Below are positions 3,773 through 62,449 of a DNA stretch of 64,000 nt, one piece after another. The notes below the pieces were generated by a model, which was not told the origin of the DNA, made no database searches, and saw only the letters and a list, made by a program, of their open reading frames with translations. The position numbers and the translations under genes are program-made. The stretch spans positions 62,001 through 126,000 of the forward strand of contig JAYWIR010000093.1 in assembly GCA_036172245.1 (NCBI GenBank). The letters run 5' to 3'. This stretch comes from Raillietiella orientalis. Lineage: Eukaryota. Within the stretch, counting starts at the first letter, position 1; each line of letters starts with the position of its first letter.

Positions 3773-6700
3773 TCACAGTTGCTGGTGGGGCCGTTGCATC
3801 CTTTGCAGGATGCCGGCAAGCTCCTTCTGTATTCCTGGATCCAGGTGGGGCCATCGGGACGCCCTCGTCAGGAACTGGGAGGCTGGCTGGATGGCACTCT
3901 GGTCGCATTGTCCTCCCGTAGCCTTGCTCCAAGCGGTGACGATCCCGCGTAGGCAGCACAAAGCTGCTAACGAGGCCGCTGGCCGAAGTGAGTCGGCAAC
4001 GAAGAGGGCTTTCAGTGCGTCCCTGGGGTTGCCGCAGGGGATTCCGATGGCCGCGGCAAAGCGAAACCAAAGGGGCCGAAGGGCAACACAATCCACTAGC
4101 AGGTGGGGGAGGGACTCCCGTTCCCCACAGCTGACGCAATTGGGGTCCACCGCTCCCCAGGTCCAGTGGTGTCGGCGGGCGTTGCAGGGGAGTCCCCAGT
4201 GCAGCAACAGGAGAGCCGACTCCTGCCATTTTAAGGGGAGGGCGGAAGTGTTCATGAGCACCGGGGGCCACTTCAGATGTTCAATGGGAACATCGAGCAG
4301 CGCGCCCCAACGCAGAAGTCCATTGGGAGGCGTACTCGGGGTCGCAGCGTCTGTTAACTGGCCCGTCTTCCACTCTCCTATCTTCTTCTCCTTTCCGGAG
4401 ATTGTTACTGTAACCACCCACTTCGCCGCAACATCGCTGTCCAGATCTTCCATCAGGGAGGGCAGCGCAGCAGCGAGGGCGGTTCTTCCTGCCCACGCTC
4501 TCTTCTTTGGATCCTCCAGGATCTCGCGGAGCGTGCAACTTCTGTAACCCCCAAACAGGAACCTTCGTTCCTGTTGGGAGCGTTGCATGCCGAACTGTCC
4601 CCACGTTCGAGCGGTTTCCTGCAACCAGGCACTACCGTTCAAAGGGCGACAGGTGAGCAATCCTGGGTTTTTGCGATACAGCGCAGCCACCCTCCGTAGC
4701 TGGAGTCCGCATCGGTTGACGCGGCGACGGAGTGCAAGAAAGGACGTGAGTCCCGTCTTGCCGGTGGCTTGCTGGAGAAGGAGACGTGCAGGGACGCACC
4801 AACAGGTGCACCACAACTCTGGAACGAGTGCCGACAAGCGGAACTGGAGCTGAAGCTCCAGCCGCTCCAGCATCAGGAGGCCGAGACCACCGTCCCGACG
4901 AGGAGCGCACAAGTCCTTTAAGCGGACTCGGGCCCTCCCGTTGCCCCAAAGGGAGATACGGAGGAGGTCCTTTGTCCGCTTTTTAATTCTCTCTGTGGGG
5001 GGGCAAACAAAAAGCAGTGGGCGGAGGAGAGGAGCCGCGAACGTGTTCCAAACCGCGGCTCGTTCAGGCAGGAAAAACCTTCCGCCTCGGAACGGGCCGA
5101 TCGCCGTCTCTACCTTTTGGAGGCAGCCGGACCACGCTTCCGCAGGGGAGTAGTCCCCCAACGGCACACCAAGGTACTTGAAGAACCTCACCGTGGGGAT
5201 CCCCAAACGGACCCAGTCCTGCTGCCCTGCCCACGTCGCACCAACTGGCATCATGGACGACTTCGCCCTGTTCACCGTAAGTCCGGTTCCCCGATGCAGC
5301 AGGTCGAAGAACTCCTCGACCGCCGCAGCCGGGGTGGACATAGGGAGGAGCAGCACAAGGTCGTTGGCGTATGCTGAAACGGCCGGCGTACCGGCACAGT
5401 CGTGCGGCAGGTGCGCCAGAGTTCCCCTGTACGCTCTCAATACCAACTCAAAGTAGGTACTGAAGAGCAAGGGGCTCAGGCTGTCTCCCTGCCGGATCCC
5501 ACGCCGCACCAGCACGCCGTGCAAGGTCTGCCCGCTGAAAGTAACATTGATGAAGGCGTCGCGCCAGCAGGAGCGCAGATAGGCCACTTATGAGGCCGAG
5601 AAGCCCAAGCGTTCCAGAAGCTCCAGAAGGAGATTCTGGTCGACGCAATCGAATGCTTTTCGCAAGTCGATTGCGACCGCAAGGGCTCCCTCCCCCACCC
5701 GACCATCCAACCCCTTGCCGGCGCACGCACCGGAATTCCGACTGCGCACCAAGCTCCGTTCATGTTGGAGCTCTAGCCAGGTGGAAGCGTGGAACAGGTT
5801 CGCCTCCATGCTTCGCCCGGGAACAGCATATGTCTGTTCCGGGCTGATGAAGATGTTGGCAACCCGTCCCAGACGCTCTGCCCACATCTTTGCTATCAAC
5901 ATGGCGTCCGCATTCACTATTGTGATGGGACGCAAGTTGTTCATGCTCCTCAGATTTCCTCCCTTAGGGAGGAGCCGCCCCTTTGCCGAACGAAACGAGG
6001 CGGGAACGTCGCATGTTTCGCGTATCAGCAAGGTGAGTTGCTGTACCAGGGGGGTAAGCTCAGCCGCGAAAGTTTGATAAAACTTCGCGGGCAGGCCGTC
6101 CTCCCCTGGAGCCTTTCGCCTCTTGAGCTTTCCGATGGCCGAGAGGATCTCGTCCATCGTGAAAGGCTCGTCGAGGGTCTTTCTCTGCTCCTCCCCGATC
6201 GCTGGAGCGCCTTCCGGAAGCAGGAGTCGTGAGACGTTCCTCTCCGGAGGTGCCCTGGCATACAGGGAGGAGTAGTAACTCCGCAGCAGGCCGCGGATTT
6301 GGGCGGGTGCCGAGTGCTCCTGGCCCTGATCGTCCAGTAAGCTGGCCGATCCGGACTGCCAGGCTTGCCTCTCGGCTCCCGCTTTGTATTCCGCCAGCCT
6401 GCAGATGTCGGGGGTCCTGACGTAACGACGGGCCTGCAGGTAGGCTCGTTCGTAACGGACCCCGGTCCCAAAACCCGTAGGTAGGCGGTGCAGAGGGAAC
6501 TCGTCGCAGAACTCGTGGACGTACCGCTTGAAGCGGTCCTAATCCTGGAGTGTCCGCAGCCTGAAGCTCCGTATGAACGTGCGGAGATGTTCCGCCGCGT
6601 CCGGGAGCTTAAGCCAGTCCCCTGGGAGACGCCACGCTGACGAGGGGGGACCCCTGTCGCGCGGGTGGATCTCGAGGACTAGCGGGCGATGGTCGGACAG

Positions 6701-7354
6701 CTCGCACGGTAACTTGCCGCGCCTGCCCACGCGAGGGCACAGGTGCTCGTCAAGAAACACGTGGTCAATGCTTTCTTCCATCCCCGGTGCACTGGCCAAC
6801 AAATTACAGGTGTGCACCGCCATGCACACCTCGTTGACCAGGTCACGCTCGGGATTCTGCCCATCTGGTTTCAGGCGAACGTTGAAATCGCCTGCAACCA
6901 GATGGGCATTCCGCACGCCTGCTTCGGTCATCCAGTCTCGCCGGAGGGCAAGGAAAAACTCTTTCCTCGCCCTCCTGTTCATCAGGTCCGTGCCGCTCGG
7001 TGCGTACACGTTCGTGATGATCAGATCGATCGAGTCGGACCACCTGAGAGTCAGCTGGCCGGCACGACCGTGATCGTCGAATCGCACGCCCCGAGCCGCG
7101 GCCTCGACGGCTGGCCGAAGCAGGTAGGCGACACCGCAACTTTTCGCTCTCCCACACCTGCACCATAGCCGCCCTCCGGAGATCCGTTCGATCTCTTGCG
7201 CTTGTTCTGCAGAGATCACGTGGATCTCCTGCAGCAGTGCAAGGTCGTAGGAATCCAGAAGGGCGGCCATGTCTCGTCTCCTGCCGGCGTCTGTCATGCC
7301 GTTCACGTTCCAAACGGCGATGCGCAGACGACGGCGGGAGGAGATTCCCGGCAT
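3773..7354 (-). pseudogene. Element C ORF2 (APE endonuclease-RT-Zn finger), disrupted
   Basis: WNVNG, LQEIH, NVYAP, AGDFNV, IDH, SDH; KAPGEDG, LRPIT, DLRKAFD, GIRQGDSLSP, YAND (YADD mutated), YLGVP; CVSCGERESLPHLLVDC. Stops at 6539 and 5588. Confidence 0.93.
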
Positions 7355-7953
7355 TACTGCTGGGAAGATCAAGGTGTGGGGGAGCCCTCCTCTTGCGAGG
7401 CGGGCGGGATGTCCATGGGGGTTTCGGCCTTCTCAGGCACCTGAGGCGCCTGTTCGGCCTCCACCCCCTCCATCCCCTCCGTGTCCGCGCGTGGGAGTCT
7501 CTGGGGCGACGGGTCCCGAGAGTTTCCCACGCTCATGGCACCCTCGCTTGCGGAAGCCATCTCTTCCCCTTCGACGGGGGAGACGAGCTTCGTTGGCTTT
7601 GTGAACTTACGTCCAGCCTTCTTGCGCGGTGCCGTGGAAACGGAGGCTGCGCTTCCGGCCTCCACCTCGGGGTCGGAAGTGGGGGACTCCTGAGGGGAGG
7701 CCGGACGCCTTACGGCCTTCTTGCCAGCCTTGGAGGTTTACACCCGGGTACGCCCGGGGCGTTTATTTTTTAAAAAAACAACTCTACATCCGCGGTACAA
7801 GGCCCCGCTCACGGCCATATGCACTGGACCTGCCGGGACGCCGGGACGCAGCCCAGCGTAGCGTTCCTCAGCAGCGAAGGGGGATGGGGATAAAACAAAA
7901 AGAAAAATTAAAAACATAAACAGACAAAAAGAAGTTCGAGGGCAGGGAAGGGA

Positions 7954-22975: not shown

Positions 22976-23470
22976 CTAATTTACTTCCGGCTTTCCTTTT
23001 TCTACTTCGTTTTTTCCTCGTTTCTTTTTGATTCCATGAGTGCTGAAGAACGGTTCGTCTAGAGACCCACGAAATTCTTCAACGCTGTCCACCAAAGGGT
23101 GCGTGTGTCTCTTCAAGTTCAGGGGTACCCCGGCAGGGGACCACCCTATGAGTTCAAGAAGGTCTCCAAAAAAAGGACTCCGGTCTTGCTCTTGGGAAGG
23201 AACCCCAAAGGCAACTTCCACCTTGGTTGTCTCTGTAGGGAATCCCGAAGTTGGGGTCATTCCTCATTCCTTCTTTTCTCCTGGAATTTCTTCTCTGAAG
23301 AGACGGAAACTCACAAGGGAACCGCTCTTCGTTTACGCATCCTCCGAAGAGAACCCAGAAGGGACGCTTCCCAATGTCTGTAAAAGGAACATCTGGCACT
23401 CTGGGAAGGCAACTCCTCGGGGGGGCATCATCCAGGTCCATGGTGAGAGAAGGAAGACTCCATTCTCACA
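22976..23470 (-). repeat. Decayed unknown coding repeat, copy 1
   Basis: Peptides IGKRPFWVLFGG and GFPTETTKVE match the opposite-strand copy at 27731-28096. Confidence 0.65.
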
Positions 23471-24575
23471 ACCGTAGGGAAAACCCTGGAGGGTCGACTT
23501 CCAGATCCCGGCCACTCAACGGGGGCACCCTGTTTCCGCCAGCTCCCGCCAACGCCTCCGCACTTGAACAGGATGACCAGCGTCATCTTGCGGGGACACT
23601 CGAAACCCTCAACGCACTGCAGCAGTTTCGCACTGGCGCCAGAGTTAGGACTCCACCATTCTAACGCTTGGCAGAGGATTCGAACGCGTTACATCACCCG
23701 CCGAGACCGTGGTTACGCGGGCGCCCACGCGGGCCGGTTTAATTCCTAACCTCTGCATTCGATAATTCCGGCTACTCTGGCCAAAAGCATGCATTTCGAT
23801 ACCTCTCTGCCTCACAGCACACTTATATTCTTTAAAAATCTTTGTAGAGAAACAATAGAGAAACAGCATCGCCCCTTCTACTTCGATGCATCATTTGGTA
23901 GGTGCAATTACTCTCCTGTAAGAAGAGCAGCATTGCAACTAAGGTAGTGGAGGTGGCTTGGACCCAGGTCTTCCTACCGTCCGACTTCCACCTTGGCTTC
24001 TTGGGACTATTCAGACTGTGACTATTCAGTGAGAAGTCTGTCCTTGCAAAGCGGATCCAGGCGCCTCCTCTCGTTTTCGATTGTGACAGGAATGCCGGTC
24101 CGTGCAGCTGAGAGGGAATGCTTCCTCAAGAGGGTCTATTTCACCTTCAGGTGCTCATAGGATCAAAAACACCTTCAGCGCTTTAATTATTACAATAATT
24201 GAGGGAATCTATCCCTTCCTATCTTCTTGTGGAAAGTGGTCTTCCTGGAGAATGTAATCGTGTGAATGTCCACAATGTCTTTTTACACCTATTTTGGCGT
24301 AGATTTGCTTAAAAATGTACGTAGTGTGTAGGTCGGAGAAAGAGTGGTCTAGTTGCGCTTCCTGGAAGCGCATCCGGTTATCGGTCCCCTTCCAAGAAAC
24401 GTCCAGGAAAGCAACTTTCCTTGCCAGAACGGACCGCAGTTTGGAACACTTTTCTGGATTCCACCCTCCACCCCTTTCCTACAAGTGCAGGAAGCTCGTT
24501 GTCCTTCTCGACCTTCTTGTGCGCGTCGGATTGCTGTGGTGCCGTTCCTTGCCGCAAGATTTATTCAGTCGGTTC

Positions 24576-25976
24576 GCCAGATATGTGGGCAGAGTGAAGG
24601 GAATCATCCCTGATGCCACGCAGAAGGAGATTCAGGGAGCTCCGCGTGACGCGTCATTGATCGTTTAGTTGCCAAGGAATGCATCTCGCCGTCACCACAC
24701 TTTGGTCAAACGGCTGAAGAGCACCACTGCCACCCAAGGGGGGCCGATCGGCTCATCCCCGGTGCAGCCGTGCATCTCGCGGACGGTGAGTCTCCATCCT
24801 TGCGCTGTGTCTCATCTCCGCTCAGGAGAAATAGCAGCAACTCATTCGGCGTGCACGCTCTACACAGAGGTGTGTGACATTTGTGTGCCAATACGGAGCG
24901 CGTAACGCAAGCATTACAAACCGTGGAAAGCAAGAAAGTCCCCCCTCAGGTAGTGGCTGACCTTTTCGCAGAAAGGTTGGTTCCGAAATGTCGAGAGCAT
25001 TCGACAGCCCACGATACGCTCACCGGACTCTTCATAAGGTCAATTGCCTATTCGATGTCTATTTGTACAAGACCGAAACTATGGAAAATTGTCCAGCAGC
25101 TAGAAGAAGATAAGGTAAATGCATCGTGCATGATGGTCCGCGAGAGCACACAGCACAGGGATAATAGGAAAATAGGAAACTCTACGACTACTTTTATGCT
25201 GACCAGGCCGTGACAGATGACATGACACCGAGAGATTAATACGAGAGATACTGCTACCAAGCCTTGAACATGAAAGTGAAGCAACCAATCATGCTACTGC
25301 CATTGGGAAAATGATAAGTGACGTCTTGCTGACTGACACCGAGAGGGCCGTATGGTGCGTCTCTGATGACATGACACGATGGGCACAGCGTAATCTTTCG
25401 ATGGTGACCAAGTGCCAAGTCGGAAGTTTCCACGAGTGTAATCTTACATCTGCAGAGAAGAGCGCCAGAGACTTCTTGACAACATCTATGGCTGTATACA
25501 AAGCATGCAGAAAATCGGCGGATAACATCTGGGGAGGTGTTAATGGGCCTCTTGAATCTGGATCAACGTGGAAAGTGTACGAAGATTGGAGTCTCAGCGT
25601 CGAAGGCCTTCGTATGTTAGCTGAAAGTGAAAGTAATCGCAAAGGTCATCATGCATGCAGACTGAATGACTTTGAAGTCTGCGAGCAGGAGATTAGCATG
25701 AAGCACTCAAGATCTGGGTCCATAGTGCATGCAAAGATATATAAGACAGCATGCATGATGATGATGCTATATGACGACGAAGAGATGCATATTTTTGGTT
25801 ACGCAGCCATGGAACAACTGCAAGCTGTCTCGAAATTTGGGGTAGGCGCATGGGGCATATTCCATGAATTGCAGACTCAGAGGTGTATCCAATCGGGATG
25901 GAACCTAGAAAGGACCCACCCAATTCGTGTTAAGAACCTAACTAGAAGAGTCAGTCTAGGGAAATCAAAATCCTAA
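24576..25976 (+). pseudogene. Probable endogenous viral element: RdRp core fragment of a bunyavirus-like (segmented negative-strand RNA virus) L protein
   Basis: After removing an 8-bp and a 5-bp tandem duplication one frame reads QHRDNRKLY-x13-E..IR (premotif A/F), VWCVSDDMTRWAQ (motif A, 25362-25388), degenerate QEI..H..GSIVH (B-like) and MMLYDD (C-like, 25770). Motif comparison from memory. Confidence 0.7.
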
Positions 25977-27730
25977 GCGATACCTCGAAAGCCAAAATAG
26001 AGCCAAAGCCACAGACTTACACTCCTCAGGAGTGGCAACGATTTCCGCAAAAGGGGAAACCGGAAATTTTTAATGCCCAGAAAGACAGAAGACCCTGAAT
26101 CGGCATCGAGCATCATCACCCGAAGCTGCACCCTCAGCAAATGTGCATCGAAACATACATGCAAACTCCGCGAAGGAATGGCTCCATTCTGGAAGACGCC
26201 ATTTTCCACCCAGGTGTTCAGGTGACCGAGATGGATGCACTGGAAACTTTTGGAAACTTTTGGAAACTAGAAACTTTCAATCTTTAGGGACGAGGTGCGC
26301 AAAGAGTAGCCCCGGATTGTGTAAAGCTCGAGGGAAAGCATGAAAACGCAGAACTCGGATTCCACCCAACGGCCGTGTTATTAGAGATCATCTCGGAACG
26401 CGATTCTCCCCTTTGCAAGCTTATGTTCCCAAGGCGAGACGCAACCGGAAGAATTTTGTATTCCAAAGCCAAAACTAAGCTAGACCGGAAACTCAAATGA
26501 TTGTGTGGGAGAAACCACCGAGCTGCAAATTCCAAATCTCCAGGCAAGAGTACTGAGGAATAAAGGAGGACGCAAACGCCGAACGCAATCTCTCAAGGGA
26601 ATCACAGAATCTCTCCGCAGAGGTCCTCGGGATAGCAGCAGTGCTGTCTCTGCTCTCACGCCCCATCTCGTGAGCACGAGTCGAACAACGTGGTCCAGAC
26701 GCCCCGAGAAACGGCCTCCACTGGGTCCGAAGAGAATTGCCCTGAAGCATGAAGCAGCCGCTCGCCCCGGATGTGCTGGTTGATCGTACTGCATTCCTCG
26801 CAGGGTGAGGTGGGTGGGGTGGGGGACAATGGGAGCTCCGGTTGCATCGGGAATTGCTCAAGGGAACGAACCTCACGGGCGCGTTCGAACTCGAAGCGTG
26901 CAATGCATGCATGCAGGGAACGTAATTGCCGTCGACCCCAGAACGTGCACGAAATCATGTTCCAGGTGTTGTTGCGTCCAGCAAAAGCGTCTTCCCGTCT
27001 TCTTCCTTGTTCTTGCTTCTCCGAATAACTGCTGATGAATACGATCCATGCCAGGAGCTCGCGAGTCCATCTTAGGCGGATGGAGAACGTTTGCACGTCC
27101 AGATGTGAGCAGCCAAGTCCGTCAAGAGACAGTCACAAGGTTTCCCTCATTCCGAGCGGTCCAGAAATGTCGGCACACGCAAGGGGTGAAAACCCTGATC
27201 CTTAGCCCTTGGCTCTGTCTCCAGTTGTCCCTGCTGAAGTGCCTTCGGTCTCCTGGGTCCGATTTCCCGTTTCTTCGTGTGTGGAATGCGTGACTCGCGC
27301 ATGTGACCCGCGCAGGTCTGGAGTCTCCAGACCTGCTTCGAACTCTTCCTCTTGCAGCCGAGAGACGTCGCGCTGCTCTTTTCGTGAGATTTTCATAAAC
27401 TTTCGTTTCAAAGAGAAGGCTGCAGGCACGTGCTCTACTTGTGGACCTTGCCGATCCGCAGGCCACGTAGGAGACCACGTGGTCACGGTCTCCTCGCGTG
27501 GCGCACGGCCAAAATTCCCGGGTTCGAATTCCACGCGGGGAAAAGCTGATGCCGAGAGATGGAGGGGGAGTCGCGGGTTCGGGTTCATCCCGCGAGATGA
27601 CGCTGGGCGGCTTCCATTCATTCGGGTGCGACACAGGTGGTGGTTCGAACCCTGACGAGTGGCCGCGATTGGGAGTCCAACCTCCGGGGCTCATCTATAA
27701 ATCAAAGAGTGAATGCTCCTTTCCCACTGA

Positions 27731-28096
27731 TTGTACAAAGGAGCAAGCCTACTCTCCGTGGGGGAACCTCCTTCTCGCACTATGGATTCGGTGTGTCGCC
27801 ACCTCTACGGAGTGCAAGGAAGAGAGCGGATCCCTTCGGGCTCTTCAGAGAAAATTGGGAAGCGTCCCTTCGGGGTTCTCTTTGGAGGGGGGAAGAGGGA
27901 GAAGGTCCTTTTTTCCCGAGGAGAGATTCCTACTAGCAGTTCGTTTCCCGGGTTCCCTTCGGAGACAACCAGGGTGGAGAGGTTCCCTTCTCTGATCCCT
28001 GCCCTCCAGGAGCGAGAGGAACGGACTCCAAGCTTTCTCTGGATTCGAATGGCGCTCCCCTTCCGGGCACTCCCTATCCAGAAGTTCTGTCAGTGA
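27731..28096 (+). repeat. Decayed unknown coding repeat, copy 2 (inverted relative to copy 1)
   Basis: IGKRPFGVLFGG, GFPSETTRVE; DNA match 27853-27888 to reverse complement of 23341-23376. Confidence 0.65.
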
Positions 28097-28649
28097 AAAA
28101 ATACGTAGCGGCAAGGATCGGAGGTGTTTATCATTTGGGGACTCTCGTGGTCGGCCCTAGCTCAAGGGACGCCCATGCGATCACGGCTCCGATGTCACAG
28201 CAGCACACATCACCAGGAAAGTGCATGGTGTGTACGCAACGAGCTTGGTGAGATCAAAATTTTCTCTTCCGTGGGAGGGCGCAGGTGGTCTTCGACTTGC
28301 GGCGGGGTCACGTTCCATGGTGGCCGTCGCCTCTGACGTCAGCCAGAGACTTCTTTACATTCTTGGTTTGTTGGATTGCTGTTTTGCATGTCTTGCATAT
28401 CCCAGGCGGGTTCCCAACTATCTTCAAATGCCTTGAAAAACGTATGAACTTACATGAACATCCACAAATTGCTCATTCGTGTATGTGTGAATACATAAAC
28501 ATGTATAAAATTAAGGAAGAAAAATTCACGAAAAGAAAAAACCACGCGCACATATCAAAACTGGTGCAAAGATAAACAAAAAACTTATTAACGGCGTTTA
28601 ATTCGATGATTTTTTAATTGGAACGACATGCCTATCTTTTTTCGGGAGT

Positions 28650-30567: not shown

Positions 30568-33500
30568 AATCCTGGCACTGGTTTCCCCAAGCCCCACAAG
30601 GGGTGGGGTGAGTTTGTTTCCTTTCATCACTGACTCTAGATATTCATGCATTCGTTTTCTCCAATTAATTCACTTATGTCTCCCGGGATTATCACTGAGG
30701 TTCGCTACAGTTGGGGAACTGGGCGGTGTTTATGCCTGGACGTTGTCCTCAATCCTTCTCAGGATATGTCGGTGCTTCCAGGACTGTACTCTTTCACAGT
30801 TTCTTATGGCGATCTCCTTCTAGATAAGCCCTTTCAAGATTTCCATTGGAGATACGGCGGTGCTGGTGGTCTTCATCTTCAACCACCGCACATCGATGGC
30901 GGTGATGAAGAGGGCGATGGTCATTCTTACCATGAGATTATAACAGGGAACGTTCCCATTTCCTGGGAACATGCCTGCTAAAATTCCTATGGTCGATGTG
31001 GTGGGCAGCCCGGTCACCCTTTTGAGGGTGTGCCACTCTTGTTGCATAGTGGGACAGGTGACGACGTGGAGTCTTATATCCTTGTCTCCACATGCTTTGC
31101 AGGCCTCATCTTCTCTTCTTCCTGTGAATAGCCTAATGGTTGTCCCGCACAGCATTCCTCCATGATAAAACATCAGGAGGTTATCCTGTGTGTCCTGTGG
31201 CAAGTCGCTCCCCCAGAGCGTCGTTTTGGTCGCCAACAGGTTTACCCCTGCACTCCCGTGGCGATCGACGGCTTCTTGAAGGGCATGGTGTCTTTTTCCT
31301 CTTCGACTATTATGCGGCATAGGTTTCTCTTTGTTACCCTCGACCACACGAAGTTGTTGTGGTTTTTCCACACTTCGCGTGTCCTGTGGGTGAATCTTCC
31401 AGCTATCCTGTCCATGTATCGGAGTACTTCGGAGTGGTGAAGGTACTCTCCTCGTCTCTATGCTTGAGCTGCTTGCAAGGTAATCCTAGACCGCTGGTGG
31501 GTCCAGTATTCTCCGTATCCGGAGGTACCGAAAGCATGCACTGGATCACAAGGATGGATTCCTCCTGCCAGAGTTCCTTGTTCCTTGTTATGATCTTCAG
31601 CTGGTGCTTGTGTACCAACTGTTGCTTTCGTCTTCAGGTTGGGTCGATGGTCCCCCATTTTCCCACTCCGCCGAGCAGCTCAGTCATCAGTCCTCTCGAG
31701 TTATTTATCAACAACGAGTAAGTCCTGTACGCCGCATACGGCCAGCCTTCCCGGATTTTTCGACATGTCCAGGAGTTGTCGCACGTCTATGGTGTCCACG
31801 GCGTGTGCAAGCGACTTCATCCTGGTACCGCCTTCCTCCTTAGGACAACACAGTGGTTTGAGGAGGACTCTAGGTCGGTAACCTCCCCAGAGGGTTTTCC
31901 TTCGTAGCTTTTCTACCTGTATTTTGGTGTATTGATGCATTCTGCAGAAAGCCGCTACGGAGAGTATCTTTGGAAGGAGTATTTCGTTCAAAAGGTTGGC
32001 CTTCCGCTTCATGCTAAAGTCCAAATGGGTATACTTCGCTCCTTCTTGCTCTGTTTTCTCCAGGATTTCCTTCCACAATAGTTGAGACGATGAATTGTCG
32101 TCAATGTGGACACCCATGTTCTTGGCATTGTCCACCGTTCCGAATTCTTTTTTCATGAGTATGGGGAGATTCAGGATCCCCACGGGCAAAAGTTAGCTTT
32201 TCTGGGAGTGGATTTTTAAACTCAGTCCTTCTTCCATGAGCTCCGCCACATCCAGAAACACACTGATTTCTCTGCCCATTGAGGGAGAAGATCATCCGCG
32301 TAAGCCAGATGGGTGAGCCGTTGATTGTGGACATTGATTTCGCGGAGGTGCCCACTTCTCTCCATGAATGAAGAGAAAGCCTCCATGTATATGACAAACA
32401 GCTCTCATCGGACTGACTGCGTTGTCTTGGCGGACTCATGGTTCCATTTGGATGGCTGTCTCTTCCCCGTTTATCTTGATCTGAAAGTGCTGCTCTTCAA
32501 GTATCATCTTCACAAAGCTGCTAAATTGTTCCGAGAGGTCCAGTCTTCCTAGAATCTTCAGCAGCATCTCATGGTCCACCGTATCGAAAGCTTTCTCCAT
32601 GTCAGTGAAACCCAGTACCAAGTTCTCGCCGATATATCAGCTGAGACCAATGGTAGCCTGGGCACACTTGACATTGTCCGACATGTGGCGTCCGGGCACG
32701 GCGCATGTCTGAACGGGAGAGATGAGCTGTGGCATGACCTCGCCTAAGCGGTTAGCCCAGATCTTTGCTAACCACTTGGCATCGCTGTTCAGGATTGAGA
32801 TTGGTCTCCATTGGGTAACCATAGTCAGATCACCTCCTTTCGGCAACAATCTCATTCTGCTCTCGTAGAAGGATGCAAGTAGTCGTCCTTCTGGTCGGAT
32901 GCAGAGCGTGAGCTGGTGGAACAGACGTCGGTAGGCATGCGAGTACCGCTTATAGTGAGAGATGGGGACACTATCAGGGACCGCCGCCACATTACTGCGA
33001 AGTTCCACAAACGCAGCTTTCACTTCTTCTTCCGAGATTTACTTTCCAAGCATCTTCCGATGGTTTTCACTCGTTCGTTTTTCCAGGTGTCGCAGAAAAT
33101 TCCTTGATTAGTAAAGCACAGATGTCTTCGTCGGAAGTGCTCCACGTAACGCCACTGGAAGGCGTGAGAGATGTTTTCCAACGTGTACCGACTGTGGCCA
33201 TCATACTGAATGCAGAAGATGTCTGTTGACAGATTCTTCTTCTCCAGTACGCCGACTTTTTCTTTCACATTTTAGAAGACGTACTGACTCTCGTATTGTT
33301 CCCAATACTTCGAGAGGGAAAGATCTGGATGTGAAGCTCCCGGTACGCTCCCTGACTCAGTCTCATGTCCCCAAACTGTATGTTGCAGAACAGGTGGACT
33401 CGGTGTTTCAGACTATGCCAGTCGGCAACTCCGCGGATGCTGGTCGTCCGCAGAATCGTCTCTATAACTTCTTGATGGCACGGAAAAGTTTCGAACCAGG

Positions 33501-60880: not shown

Positions 60881-61614
60881 TTCCCAAAGGCAGCAGCATG
60901 ATTGATTGCTTCACTTTCATGTTCGAGGCTTGGTAGCAGTATCTCTCGTATTTATCTCTCGGTGTCATGTCATCTGTCACGGCCTGGTCAGCATAAAAGT
61001 AGTCGTAGAGTTTCCTATTTTCCTATTATCCCTGTGCTATGTGCTCTTGCGGACCATCATGCACGATGCATTAACCTTATCTTCTTCTAGCTGCTGGACA
61101 ATTTTCCATAGTTTCGGTCTTGTACAAATGGACATCGAATAGGCAATTGACCTTATGAAGAGTCCGGTGAGCGTATCGTGGGCTGTCGAATGCTCTCGAC
61201 ATTTCGGAACCAACCTTTCTGCGAAAAGGTCAGCCACTACCTGAGGGGGGACTTTCTTGCTTTCCACGGTTTGTAATGCTTGCGTTACGCGCTCCGTATT
61301 GGCACACAAATGTCACACACCTCTGTGTAGAGCGTGCACGCCGAATGAGTTGCTGCTATTTCTCCTGAGCGGAGATGAGACACAGAGCAAGGATGGAGAC
61401 TCACCGTCCGCGAGATGCACGGCTGCACCGGGGATGAGCCGATCGGCCCCCCTTGGGTGGCAGTGGTGCTCTTCAGCCGTTTGACCAAAGTGTGGTGACG
61501 GCGAGATGCATTCCTTGGCAACCAAACGATCAATGACGCGTCACGCGGAGCTCCCTGAATCTCCTTCTGCGTGGCATCAGGGATGATTCCCTTCACTCTG
61601 CCTACATATCTGGC
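60881..61614 (-). repeat. Inverted near-identical duplicate of 24576-25309 (bunya-like L fragment); coding-like sequence continues to ~61960
   Basis: ~734 bp colinear reverse complement with scattered substitutions; same micro-duplications. Confidence 0.95.
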
Positions 61615-62449
61615 AAGCGCAATAATTATGTCAACAGGTATGTGCTTCGAAAACACGCTGCGTGCTGTCGGCACGTAGATAATCCACTTTAGGAAGTGCA
61701 TTTTACACTCATAGGTATAAAAGACAATCTTATCATAAGGAACCTATATCAGCGCGTTGATTCGAAATCGAAAAATGCTCTCCTGAAAAATTTCTGCACA
61801 TTAAGTTCATCGGATATATTCAGTTATCCCATGTTGTCACCAATACCATTCCTGTGCCATGGTCTTGCAGACCAATTCAGCATTTGCAACACGGTTTCGT
61901 ACAATGTCACTATATGGTAAGTGTACAGAAAAATACCGCACGACTGGACCGTGGAAGGGATGGGCTTTTACCACCGGATGGCATCCTCAGCTGGATAGTG
62001 ACTATCTTTAACAGCATCCTTGAACCCACTGACACGGCTCCCTGCAACTTGGCTGCCTTGGACGCGTGCGTGGGAAGCTTCGACTGGTGTCATGGCAACG
62101 TCGCATTGCTGTGGTTTTCCACCCGAGTAAGCCGAAGCTTTTATTATTAAAATTTTTACATAGAAAAATTCCATAATGAAGTCATCTTTTTGGTCTTTTT
62201 GGCTTTTGTTCTTCAGTCAGAACACATCGTTCTGATTGCCTTGAGGCACTTGTCCTTACCGACCCGCAGGCCGGAAAGGTCCTCATTGCTGTGGAAGAAA
62301 GAGCGAGTAGCGCCCCAGCGTTGCTGTGGTTCCCTTCTTGCCTTCCTATTAATTACTTTTCGTATTCTTGGGTATACTTCATTTGCATCTTTTAACAGTC
62401 TTGATATACTTTGATACCTTGACTAAACTAAATTGTTACATTTCTTTAT

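Follow-up and report, generated by a model that had tools for sequence, protein, structure and literature searches.

A probable endogenous relic of the start of a qinvirus-like L gene in retroelement-rich DNA

The window analysed here is a 64-kb stretch of DNA (positions 62,001 to 126,000 of contig JAYWIR010000093.1), and it contains a hidden gene relic at 24988-25976 on the plus strand. We conclude that this relic is most likely a non-functional endogenous viral element (EVE) that descends from the first ~1 kb of L coding sequence of a qinvirus-like virus (Haploviricotina). The relic is without the catalytic palm, with its IDD motif C, and cannot encode a polymerase. The initial annotation of the window had placed here the core of an endogenised bunyavirus-like RNA-dependent RNA polymerase (RdRp), with a premotif A and motifs A-C that became readable once two tandem duplications were removed. 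Its proposal of a polymerase gene from a negative-strand RNA virus is retained in part: a relic of an L gene probably does lie in retroelement-rich DNA, but it appears to be neither bunyaviral nor a polymerase core.

Results

A hidden gene that belongs to an unnamed protein family

The relic is frameshifted and invisible as one open reading frame (ORF), as had been recognised from the outset, with stops and frame changes between 25111 and 25260. Its parts are as follows.

24576-24987, plus strand: leader with which the duplicated unit begins, lying before the viral start codon; GC content 0.561, flank-like
24988-25110, plus strand: N-terminal coding piece, frame 1, from the ATG (MSRAFDSPRY...)
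25111-25259, plus strand: disrupted middle stretch, with stops, both tandem duplications and the change from frame 1 to frame 0
25221-25976, plus strand: 251-aa open frame, frame 0, holding AVWCVSDDMTRWAQ, CEQEISMKHSRSGSIVH and CMMMMLYDDEEMHI

In the first searches, the 251-aa ORF had no Pfam match at E<=10, and a 111-aa piece (frame-2 ORF 24878-25213, terminating ...VRESTQHRDNRKIGNSTTTF...) gave only a chance-level deaminase match (E=0.087). A phmmer search of the window ORF against PDB returned one chance match only, and word-indexed protein searches with the 251-aa ORF returned no match. An exhaustive phmmer search of 1.84 billion representative proteins gave a single match, to the 331-aa protein P0001 (E=1.2e-6, 24% identity). 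A profile of P0001 and the window ORF led to a family of 10 unnamed proteins of 160-500 aa (P0001-P0010), which come from JGI and Logan assemblies on contigs of 1.3-6.9 kb.

The N-terminus of P0001, MSRIYDTPRY..., is matched in the window by MSRAFDSPRY... at the ATG at 24988. By tblastn, residues 1-25 of P0001 matched 24988-25062 (44% identity, E=0.025) and residues 93-296 matched 25260-25853 (E=4e-12); the spacing of the second match agrees with that of the first, and the two are colinear. Residues 14-31 of P0006 were 61% identical to the N-terminal coding piece, and the 251-aa frame was matched by seven of the ten family members. The N-terminal peptide MSR.Y[DE]TPRY is common to five family members and the window ATG, the family form being MSR[IV]Y[DE]TPRY. 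A hidden Markov model (HMM) of the family was searched against all 2329 six-frame ORFs of the window, with the following matches.

25221-25973, plus strand: family HMM match, E=1e-17, HMM positions 109-309
24961-25110, plus strand: family HMM match of the piece with the start methionine, E=7e-4
61229-61080, minus strand: family HMM match of a piece of the second copy (copy B, below), E=1e-3

The next-best match among the window ORFs had E=7 and was unrelated. When the relic was read through with X at the breaks, it formed one domain spanning HMM positions 13-309. Together with the HMM matches, this shows that the hidden gene is real and that it starts at the protein's own start codon; an in-frame stop lies nine codons upstream of the ATG at 24988. 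The segment 25260-25865 is homologous to family (L protein) positions ~109-309. No homology was detectable in the last ~35 codons of the 251-aa frame, and neither the family HMM nor tblastn detected anything in the window beyond family position ~309. In 1000 Markov simulations of the local 3 kb, an open frame of at least 251 codons appeared seven times. Such a frame is only moderately unusual by itself, and it is the homology to the family (HMM E=1e-17) that makes it real.

Lesions in the relic

Every string and frame quoted in the initial annotation is present in the window, as are both tandem duplications. Frame 1 of the middle stretch has three in-frame stops (25111, 25162 and 25165). AATAGGAA forms a perfect tandem pair at 25163-25178 (Tandem Repeats Finder gave 25159-25179, period 8, 2.6 copies), ATGAC forms another at 25217-25226, and the frame-1 piece LYDYFYADQAVTDD sits between the two. 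The window has 3 perfect 8-nt tandem pairs against 0.65 in shuffles, and the duplication at 25163-25178 is probably a real slippage event. Perfect 5-nt tandem pairs numbered 61 against 54.5 in shuffles, and the doubling of ATGAC is therefore at chance frequency. Within the relic, a 20-nt stretch with GATGACATGACAC in it is directly repeated, at 25209-25228 and 25358-25377 (85% identity). The 'ATGAC duplication' and the 'SDDMT' of the proposed motif A are therefore one short DNA word used twice.

The scores do not single out one ancestral reading path through 25111-25259. Read-through peptides scored 68.7 bits along the path of the initial annotation, 68.3 bits along a frame-1 path and 67.5 bits with no middle piece. 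The frame-2 piece that had been taken for premotif A thus gained only 0.4 bits over the frame-1 read-through; it found no support among the relatives, its hhalign probability being 0.3%. On the frame-1 path, LYDYFYADQAV resembles LFDQFYLGDAV of P0006 at 6 of 11 positions, a weak but colinear match (E=0.05). The GC content is 0.457 in the relic, 0.561 in the leader and 0.524 downstream, with flanks at 0.52-0.56. The leader had no Pfam or family-HMM match, and it is probably host or transposable-element sequence that was copied along with the relic.

The proposed polymerase motifs are not conserved among the relatives

The proposed motif A reads VSDDMTRW in the window, compared with W.D[SF]DA..R[LI]V in seven of seven relatives. 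Only the window has the second D and the W, in whose places the relatives have A and L/I. The proposed motif C reads YDD in the window and THD, YEM, YDS, FED or FEH in the relatives, none of six having DD, and the segment is deleted in P0009. Conversely, the truly invariant block of the family, LDYS..DQVH..K.WEG, is degenerate in the window (FGYA..EQLQ..K.GVG). Judged by this alignment of sequences, motifs A, B and C of the initial annotation are coincidences of the window copy. The proposed parallel to a phenuivirus pattern is contradicted by what the true relatives conserve.

Searches for a bunyaviral polymerase gave no support either. No Pfam RdRp family matched any of 14 sequences, namely four window pieces and the ten relatives (Pfam-A at E<=10 for the window pieces and P0001, and at E<=1 for P0002-P0010), in a library that presumably contains the Bunya_RdRp and Arena_RNA_pol models. 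Five sequence or profile searches of PDB at E<=10 returned no bunyaviral or arenaviral L and no viral polymerase. The position is also at odds with a polymerase core. The conserved start methionine at 24988 lies only ~130 residues upstream of the supposed motif A, whereas in a bunyavirus-type L of at least 2000 aa the RdRp core usually follows many hundreds of residues after the N-terminus.

It is therefore extremely improbable that the window holds an endogenised bunyavirus- or phenuivirus-like RdRp core whose premotif A and motifs A-C are restored by removing the two duplications. In favour of that proposal, the quoted strings exist, 8-nt tandem pairs exceed chance (3 vs 0.65), and the order and rough spacing of the acidic blocks may resemble those of an RdRp palm. 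Against it stand the lack of any match to an RdRp profile or to an L protein in PDB, the lack of motif conservation and best viral matches that are qin-like.

The family resembles the N-terminal part of qinvirus-like L proteins

AlphaFold2 models of P0006 and P0008 were compared with the viral models of BFVD by Foldseek (3Di+AA). For P0006, all five matches with E<0.01 (ranks 1-5) were qin-like RdRp/L proteins. The best was from Linepithema humile qinvirus-like virus 1 (E=4e-12, 55% identity over 288 columns), the first unrelated protein appeared at E=0.05, and a bunyavirus L came only at rank 19 (E=0.4). For P0008, ranks 1-9 were all viral RdRps, six of them with 'qin' in the name. The same Linepithema virus was again the best match (E=9.7e-7, 33% identity over 222 columns), followed at ranks 2-7 by Frankliniella qin-like virus, Collembolan qin-related virus, the Wenzhou, Shahe and Sanxia qinvirus-like viruses and Beihai sesarmid crab virus 4, which an excerpt of PMC9927876 assigns to Qinviridae; the next unrelated match had an E of at least 1.1. 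Residues 4-96 of P0008 overlap the part of the family that matches the window. Identities of 29-55% over 135-290 columns amount to homology with qin-like L. From these 3Di+AA matches of two family members, we infer that the family is the N-terminus of a qinvirus-like L protein. The largest family contig, at 6,917 nt, is close to the size of the qinvirid L segment, which is 5.6-6.6 kb and encodes an RdRP with a Mononegavirales-related PRNTase (PMC10721934).

The Foldseek targets are '_1' pieces of 806-1002 aa, which appear to be the first parts of split L proteins. Excerpts of two papers give the length of the whole protein as 1,679 aa in Leptomonas qin-like virus (PMC10496375) and 1,888 aa for Anurida (PMC6955108), and an excerpt of PMC9927876 gives motif C of qinviruses as IDD. 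No IDD was seen on reading the first 500 residues of the family, and Pfam identified no PRNTase domain in 265 surrounding ORFs. The relic therefore corresponds to approximately the first 310 residues of a 1,679-1,888-aa L, upstream of the catalytic palm.

The P0008 model (predicted local distance difference test score, pLDDT, 46) was also compared with 48,161 PDB representatives by VIA-align. Residues 84-205 were placed on residues 237-356 of the N-terminal domain of vesicular stomatitis virus (VSV) L with a Z of 6.6. Mumps virus L (248-366) and human parainfluenza virus 3 L (260-362) were matched as well, and the L proteins of respiratory syncytial virus and Marburg virus were listed, all four at Z 4.6-4.8. 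The Z-scores are middling, yet the matches to mononegaviral L all fall in one region. A relationship of qinvirid L to the L of Mononegavirales is stated in PMC10721934.

Other searches placed the family no further. Sequence and profile searches of PDB, with the window ORF as well as with the family, gave only chance matches (PaaA, haemoglobin, Elf1 and CTP synthetase). P0002 and P0006 had no match in PHROGs, P0001 and P0006 had no usable match in the ESM Atlas, and tblastn of P0002 against phage records found no match. The loci of the family members were not found in viral, metagenome or genome contig collections. Some of the members, instead of belonging to virus genomes, may be relics that qin-like viruses left in the genomes of AT-rich eukaryotes. 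In P0005 the sequence gives way to an unrelated tail, in which a CCHC knuckle scored below the Pfam cut-off (E=0.07). A code in which TGA is read as W was considered for the shorter members and rejected, since the stop in P0003 lies one position before a conserved W and not on it. The 1.5-kb contig of P0001 had pointed to a small S-segment or a nucleocapsid gene, an idea that was dropped after longer members and the matches to L had been found.

A second, truncated copy shares the lesions

A blastn comparison of the window with itself gave one further feature.

60881-61614, minus strand: copy B of 24576-25309, 98.4% identical over 734 nt (722/734)

Copy B is inverted, lies 36 kb from the relic and begins at the same base as the relic-bearing copy (copy A). 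It stops at the equivalent of 25309, after 107 codons and before the proposed motif A. The N-terminal peptide match is also found in copy B, at 61202-61128. Both tandem duplications are present in both copies, so the lesions are older than the DNA duplication. Copy B also carries the 412-nt host-like leader and therefore goes back to duplication at the DNA level rather than to a second integration. The two copies differ at 12 positions, 3 of 412 upstream of the ATG and 9 of 322 after it, a distribution in which the coding part bears no mark of purifying selection. An alternative of E or K in the peptide of the initial annotation corresponds to one of these differences between copies A and B.

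Copy B bears on two other explanations. The first is a living locus, in which a co-opted or intron-containing gene is expressed or small RNAs are produced, the frame changes being small introns. Open frames as long as 251 codons were absent from 993 of 1000 simulations, GT...AG-like sites were seen by reading near 25115 and 25167, and two copies have been kept, all of which would suit such a locus. However, the candidate donor comes only after the TAA at 25111-25113, which would remain in frame, and most family-invariant residues are replaced. Moreover, the coding part diverges more (9/322) than the leader (3/412) and copy B is cut off after 107 codons. We therefore regard a living locus as improbable. 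The second explanation is an assembly artefact, in which reads of viral cDNA or of a contaminant were merged with a genomic contig. The junctions are known from the assembled contig alone, a point in its favour that also weighs on our own interpretation. Against an artefact, the two copies lie in different flanks, have common lesions and diverge by 1.6%, stops and frame changes are unexpected in a replicating virus, and the unit opens with 412 nt whose composition resembles that of the host. On this evidence, an artefact is very improbable.

The relic lies in gene-poor, repeat-derived DNA

The window is eukaryote-like in character. Its first 21.6 kb (1-21600) are an array of at least four non-long-terminal-repeat (non-LTR) retrotransposon copies on the minus strand, and this family may have been recently active, given the long open frames in several copies. 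The Pfam features of the window are listed here.

6539-7432, minus strand: APE endonuclease, E=8e-14
3773-5587, minus strand: reverse transcriptase and zf-RVT
32640-33038, minus strand: degraded reverse transcriptase fragment of a long interspersed nuclear element (LINE), the sole match among 148 ORFs of at least 70 aa near the relic

An ORF1 is also present in each non-LTR copy; inspection by eye showed a CCHC-like knuckle in it, for which Pfam gave no match. The GC content is ~0.6 in the first 21.6 kb and 0.45-0.55 in the rest of the window, and the observed/expected ratio of CpG is 0.82-1.01. An Rfam scan of the window gave no match, and between 36000 and 56100 none of 117 ORFs of at least 85 aa had a Pfam domain at E<=1e-4. 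The whole window thus looks gene-poor and repeat-derived. The apparently viral-derived sequence is contiguous, within one contig, with LINE copies and non-coding DNA on both sides.

In such surroundings, the family and the relic might be a cellular or transposon ORF, for example a gag-like one, with the relic a dead repeat and the qin-like database entries either mis-assigned or derived from viruses that captured it. The relic does belong to a repeated unit with a fixed 5' end, the family is without a named member, and nine of its ten members are shorter than the longest, as would be expected of degenerate genomic copies. Two Pfam hints point the same way, the CCHC knuckle of P0005 (E=0.07) and a Caulimovirus coat match in P0008 (E=0.017). 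Both are below the cut-off and each occurs in only one of ten members; a gag-like protein was dropped as a candidate because these hints were its sole support. Against a transposon ORF, the family shows 18-55% identity to at least seven qin-like RdRp/L entries that bear different names and come from different hosts, a spread that fits an orthologous viral gene and not one stray contaminant. In addition, no pol, reverse transcriptase or integrase adjoins the relic (1 of the 148 ORFs with a Pfam match) and the GC content of the relic is unlike that of its flanks. A cellular or transposon origin is thus unlikely.

Two further repeats were observed around the relic. Patchily similar inverted repeats at 23100-23750 and 27450-28100 bracket a segment of ~4 kb that contains it, the best block being 23341-23375 against 27854-27888 (94% over 35 nt). 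A DNA transposon bounded by these repeats was considered and dropped, since the arms are patchy and absent from copy B; their appearance is that of a small repeat present in two diverged copies, not that of the ends of a transposon. At 26241-26268, ~270 nt downstream of the relic, a 10-nt unit (TGGAAACTTT) is perfectly repeated in tandem (2.8 copies).

Discussion

Origin of the relic

The interpretation that best accounts for the findings is that of an EVE from the start of a qinvirus-like L gene. The L-gene start (first ~310 codons) of a divergent negative-strand RNA virus would have been copied into host DNA, the DNA copy being made presumably by a reverse transcriptase of the cell, for which the many LINEs in the neighbourhood would be one source. 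That a resident retroelement carried out the reverse transcription, as the initial annotation had also assumed, is plausible because LINE copies with reverse transcriptase lie in the vicinity. Stops and frame changes disrupt 25111-25260. Once they had arisen, a 734-bp block, made up of 412 bp of upstream flank and the first 322 bp of the relic, was duplicated in inverted orientation to 60881-61614. No further viral gene was found in the window.

Several observations weigh against this interpretation. Direct marks of retroposition are missing: there is no run of six or more A or T in 24400-27000, and no target-site duplication, as no direct repeat brackets the unit. A fragment of the 5' end only of an mRNA is atypical for LINE retroposition; either its 3' part was lost afterwards or template switching took place. 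The link from window to qinvirus is transitive, running from window to family and from family to virus, and is to that extent indirect. At its first step, the window is only 19-26% identical to the family. At its second, the AlphaFold2 models were poor (pLDDT 35.8 for P0006 and 46 for P0008) and the TM-scores low (0.15-0.53), so that the Foldseek signal rests on its amino-acid term. VIA-align Z-scores of 4.6-6.8 are in the range common for helical models, and unrelated helical proteins scored similarly (MCU-EMRE 6.8, Mob-kinase NTRs 5.7-5.9). Finally, none of the ten family members had a Pfam family above the cut-off, an RdRp family included, and the nine that are shorter than the longest (500 aa) start or end at differing points.

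Significance

Endogenous copies are the only direct evidence of true hosts for a virus family known solely from metatranscriptomes. An excerpt of PMC10496375 describes Qinviridae as known almost only from invertebrate holobionts, with one unambiguous host, a trypanosomatid (2023). A qin-like L relic fixed in a genome records a past infection of the host lineage, and should the host here be other than an arthropod, the relic would speak to the question of which organisms qinviruses infect. The nearest family members, about one quarter identical to the relic, exist only as unnamed environmental sequences. More tentatively, and with considerable doubt, the relic could derive from a deeply divergent, unsampled qin-/yue-like lineage; if this LINE-rich genome, in which CpG is not depleted, is that of a protist or of another group without a known qinvirus, the relic would be genomic proof of host range. 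The 5' fragment, kept and duplicated, might serve as a source of antiviral small RNAs. Such relics can slip past Pfam, PDB and word-based searches. Motifs picked by eye can reach the right class of virus with the wrong domain and the wrong order.

Comparison with known systems

The L protein of Bunyavirales and Phenuiviridae is, like that of qinviruses, a negative-strand polymerase, but it belongs to Polyploviricotina rather than Haploviricotina, which are different subphyla according to an excerpt of PMC10496375. For Mononegavirales L (VSV L, PDB 5chs), VIA-align placed the C-terminal half of the family on L residues ~240-365 of VSV, mumps virus and human parainfluenza virus 3. However, the Z is only 4.6-6.6, the matched part lies mostly beyond what the window retains, and the PDB searches found no sequence-level match of the family to any solved L protein. 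The closest counterpart is the L of Qinviridae (Yingvirus and qin-like viruses). Family members are 18-55% identical to the first pieces of these proteins, share the N-terminal methionine and are colinear with them, whereas the relic has only ~310 of 1,679-1,888 codons, is broken and is without the IDD core and the PRNTase.

Relics of this kind have been described in other genomes. An excerpt of PMC9927876 reports an RdRp-like EVE with the IDD motif in the genome of Bigelowiella natans, a sign of ancient infection. Like the relic described here, it is a distant qin-/yue-like polymerase relic in a eukaryotic genome, but it has motifs A and C (IDD), and the present relic ends well before them. 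Among arthropods, EVE7 of Camponotus floridanus is derived from an RdRp of the qinvirus clade (excerpt of PMC6540820), and 'Qinvirus' is one of 13 RNA-virus clades with EVEs in arthropods (excerpt of PMC6955108, citing Shi et al. 2016). Those EVEs came to light through BLAST comparison with the RdRp region, whereas the relic in this window is N-terminal and was missed by Pfam, PDB and word searches. In common with them, it is a fragmentary genomic copy of a polymerase gene that would record a past infection. Qinvirus EVEs are thus already on record, and what is unusual here is an N-terminal fragment of a kind that standard searches miss.

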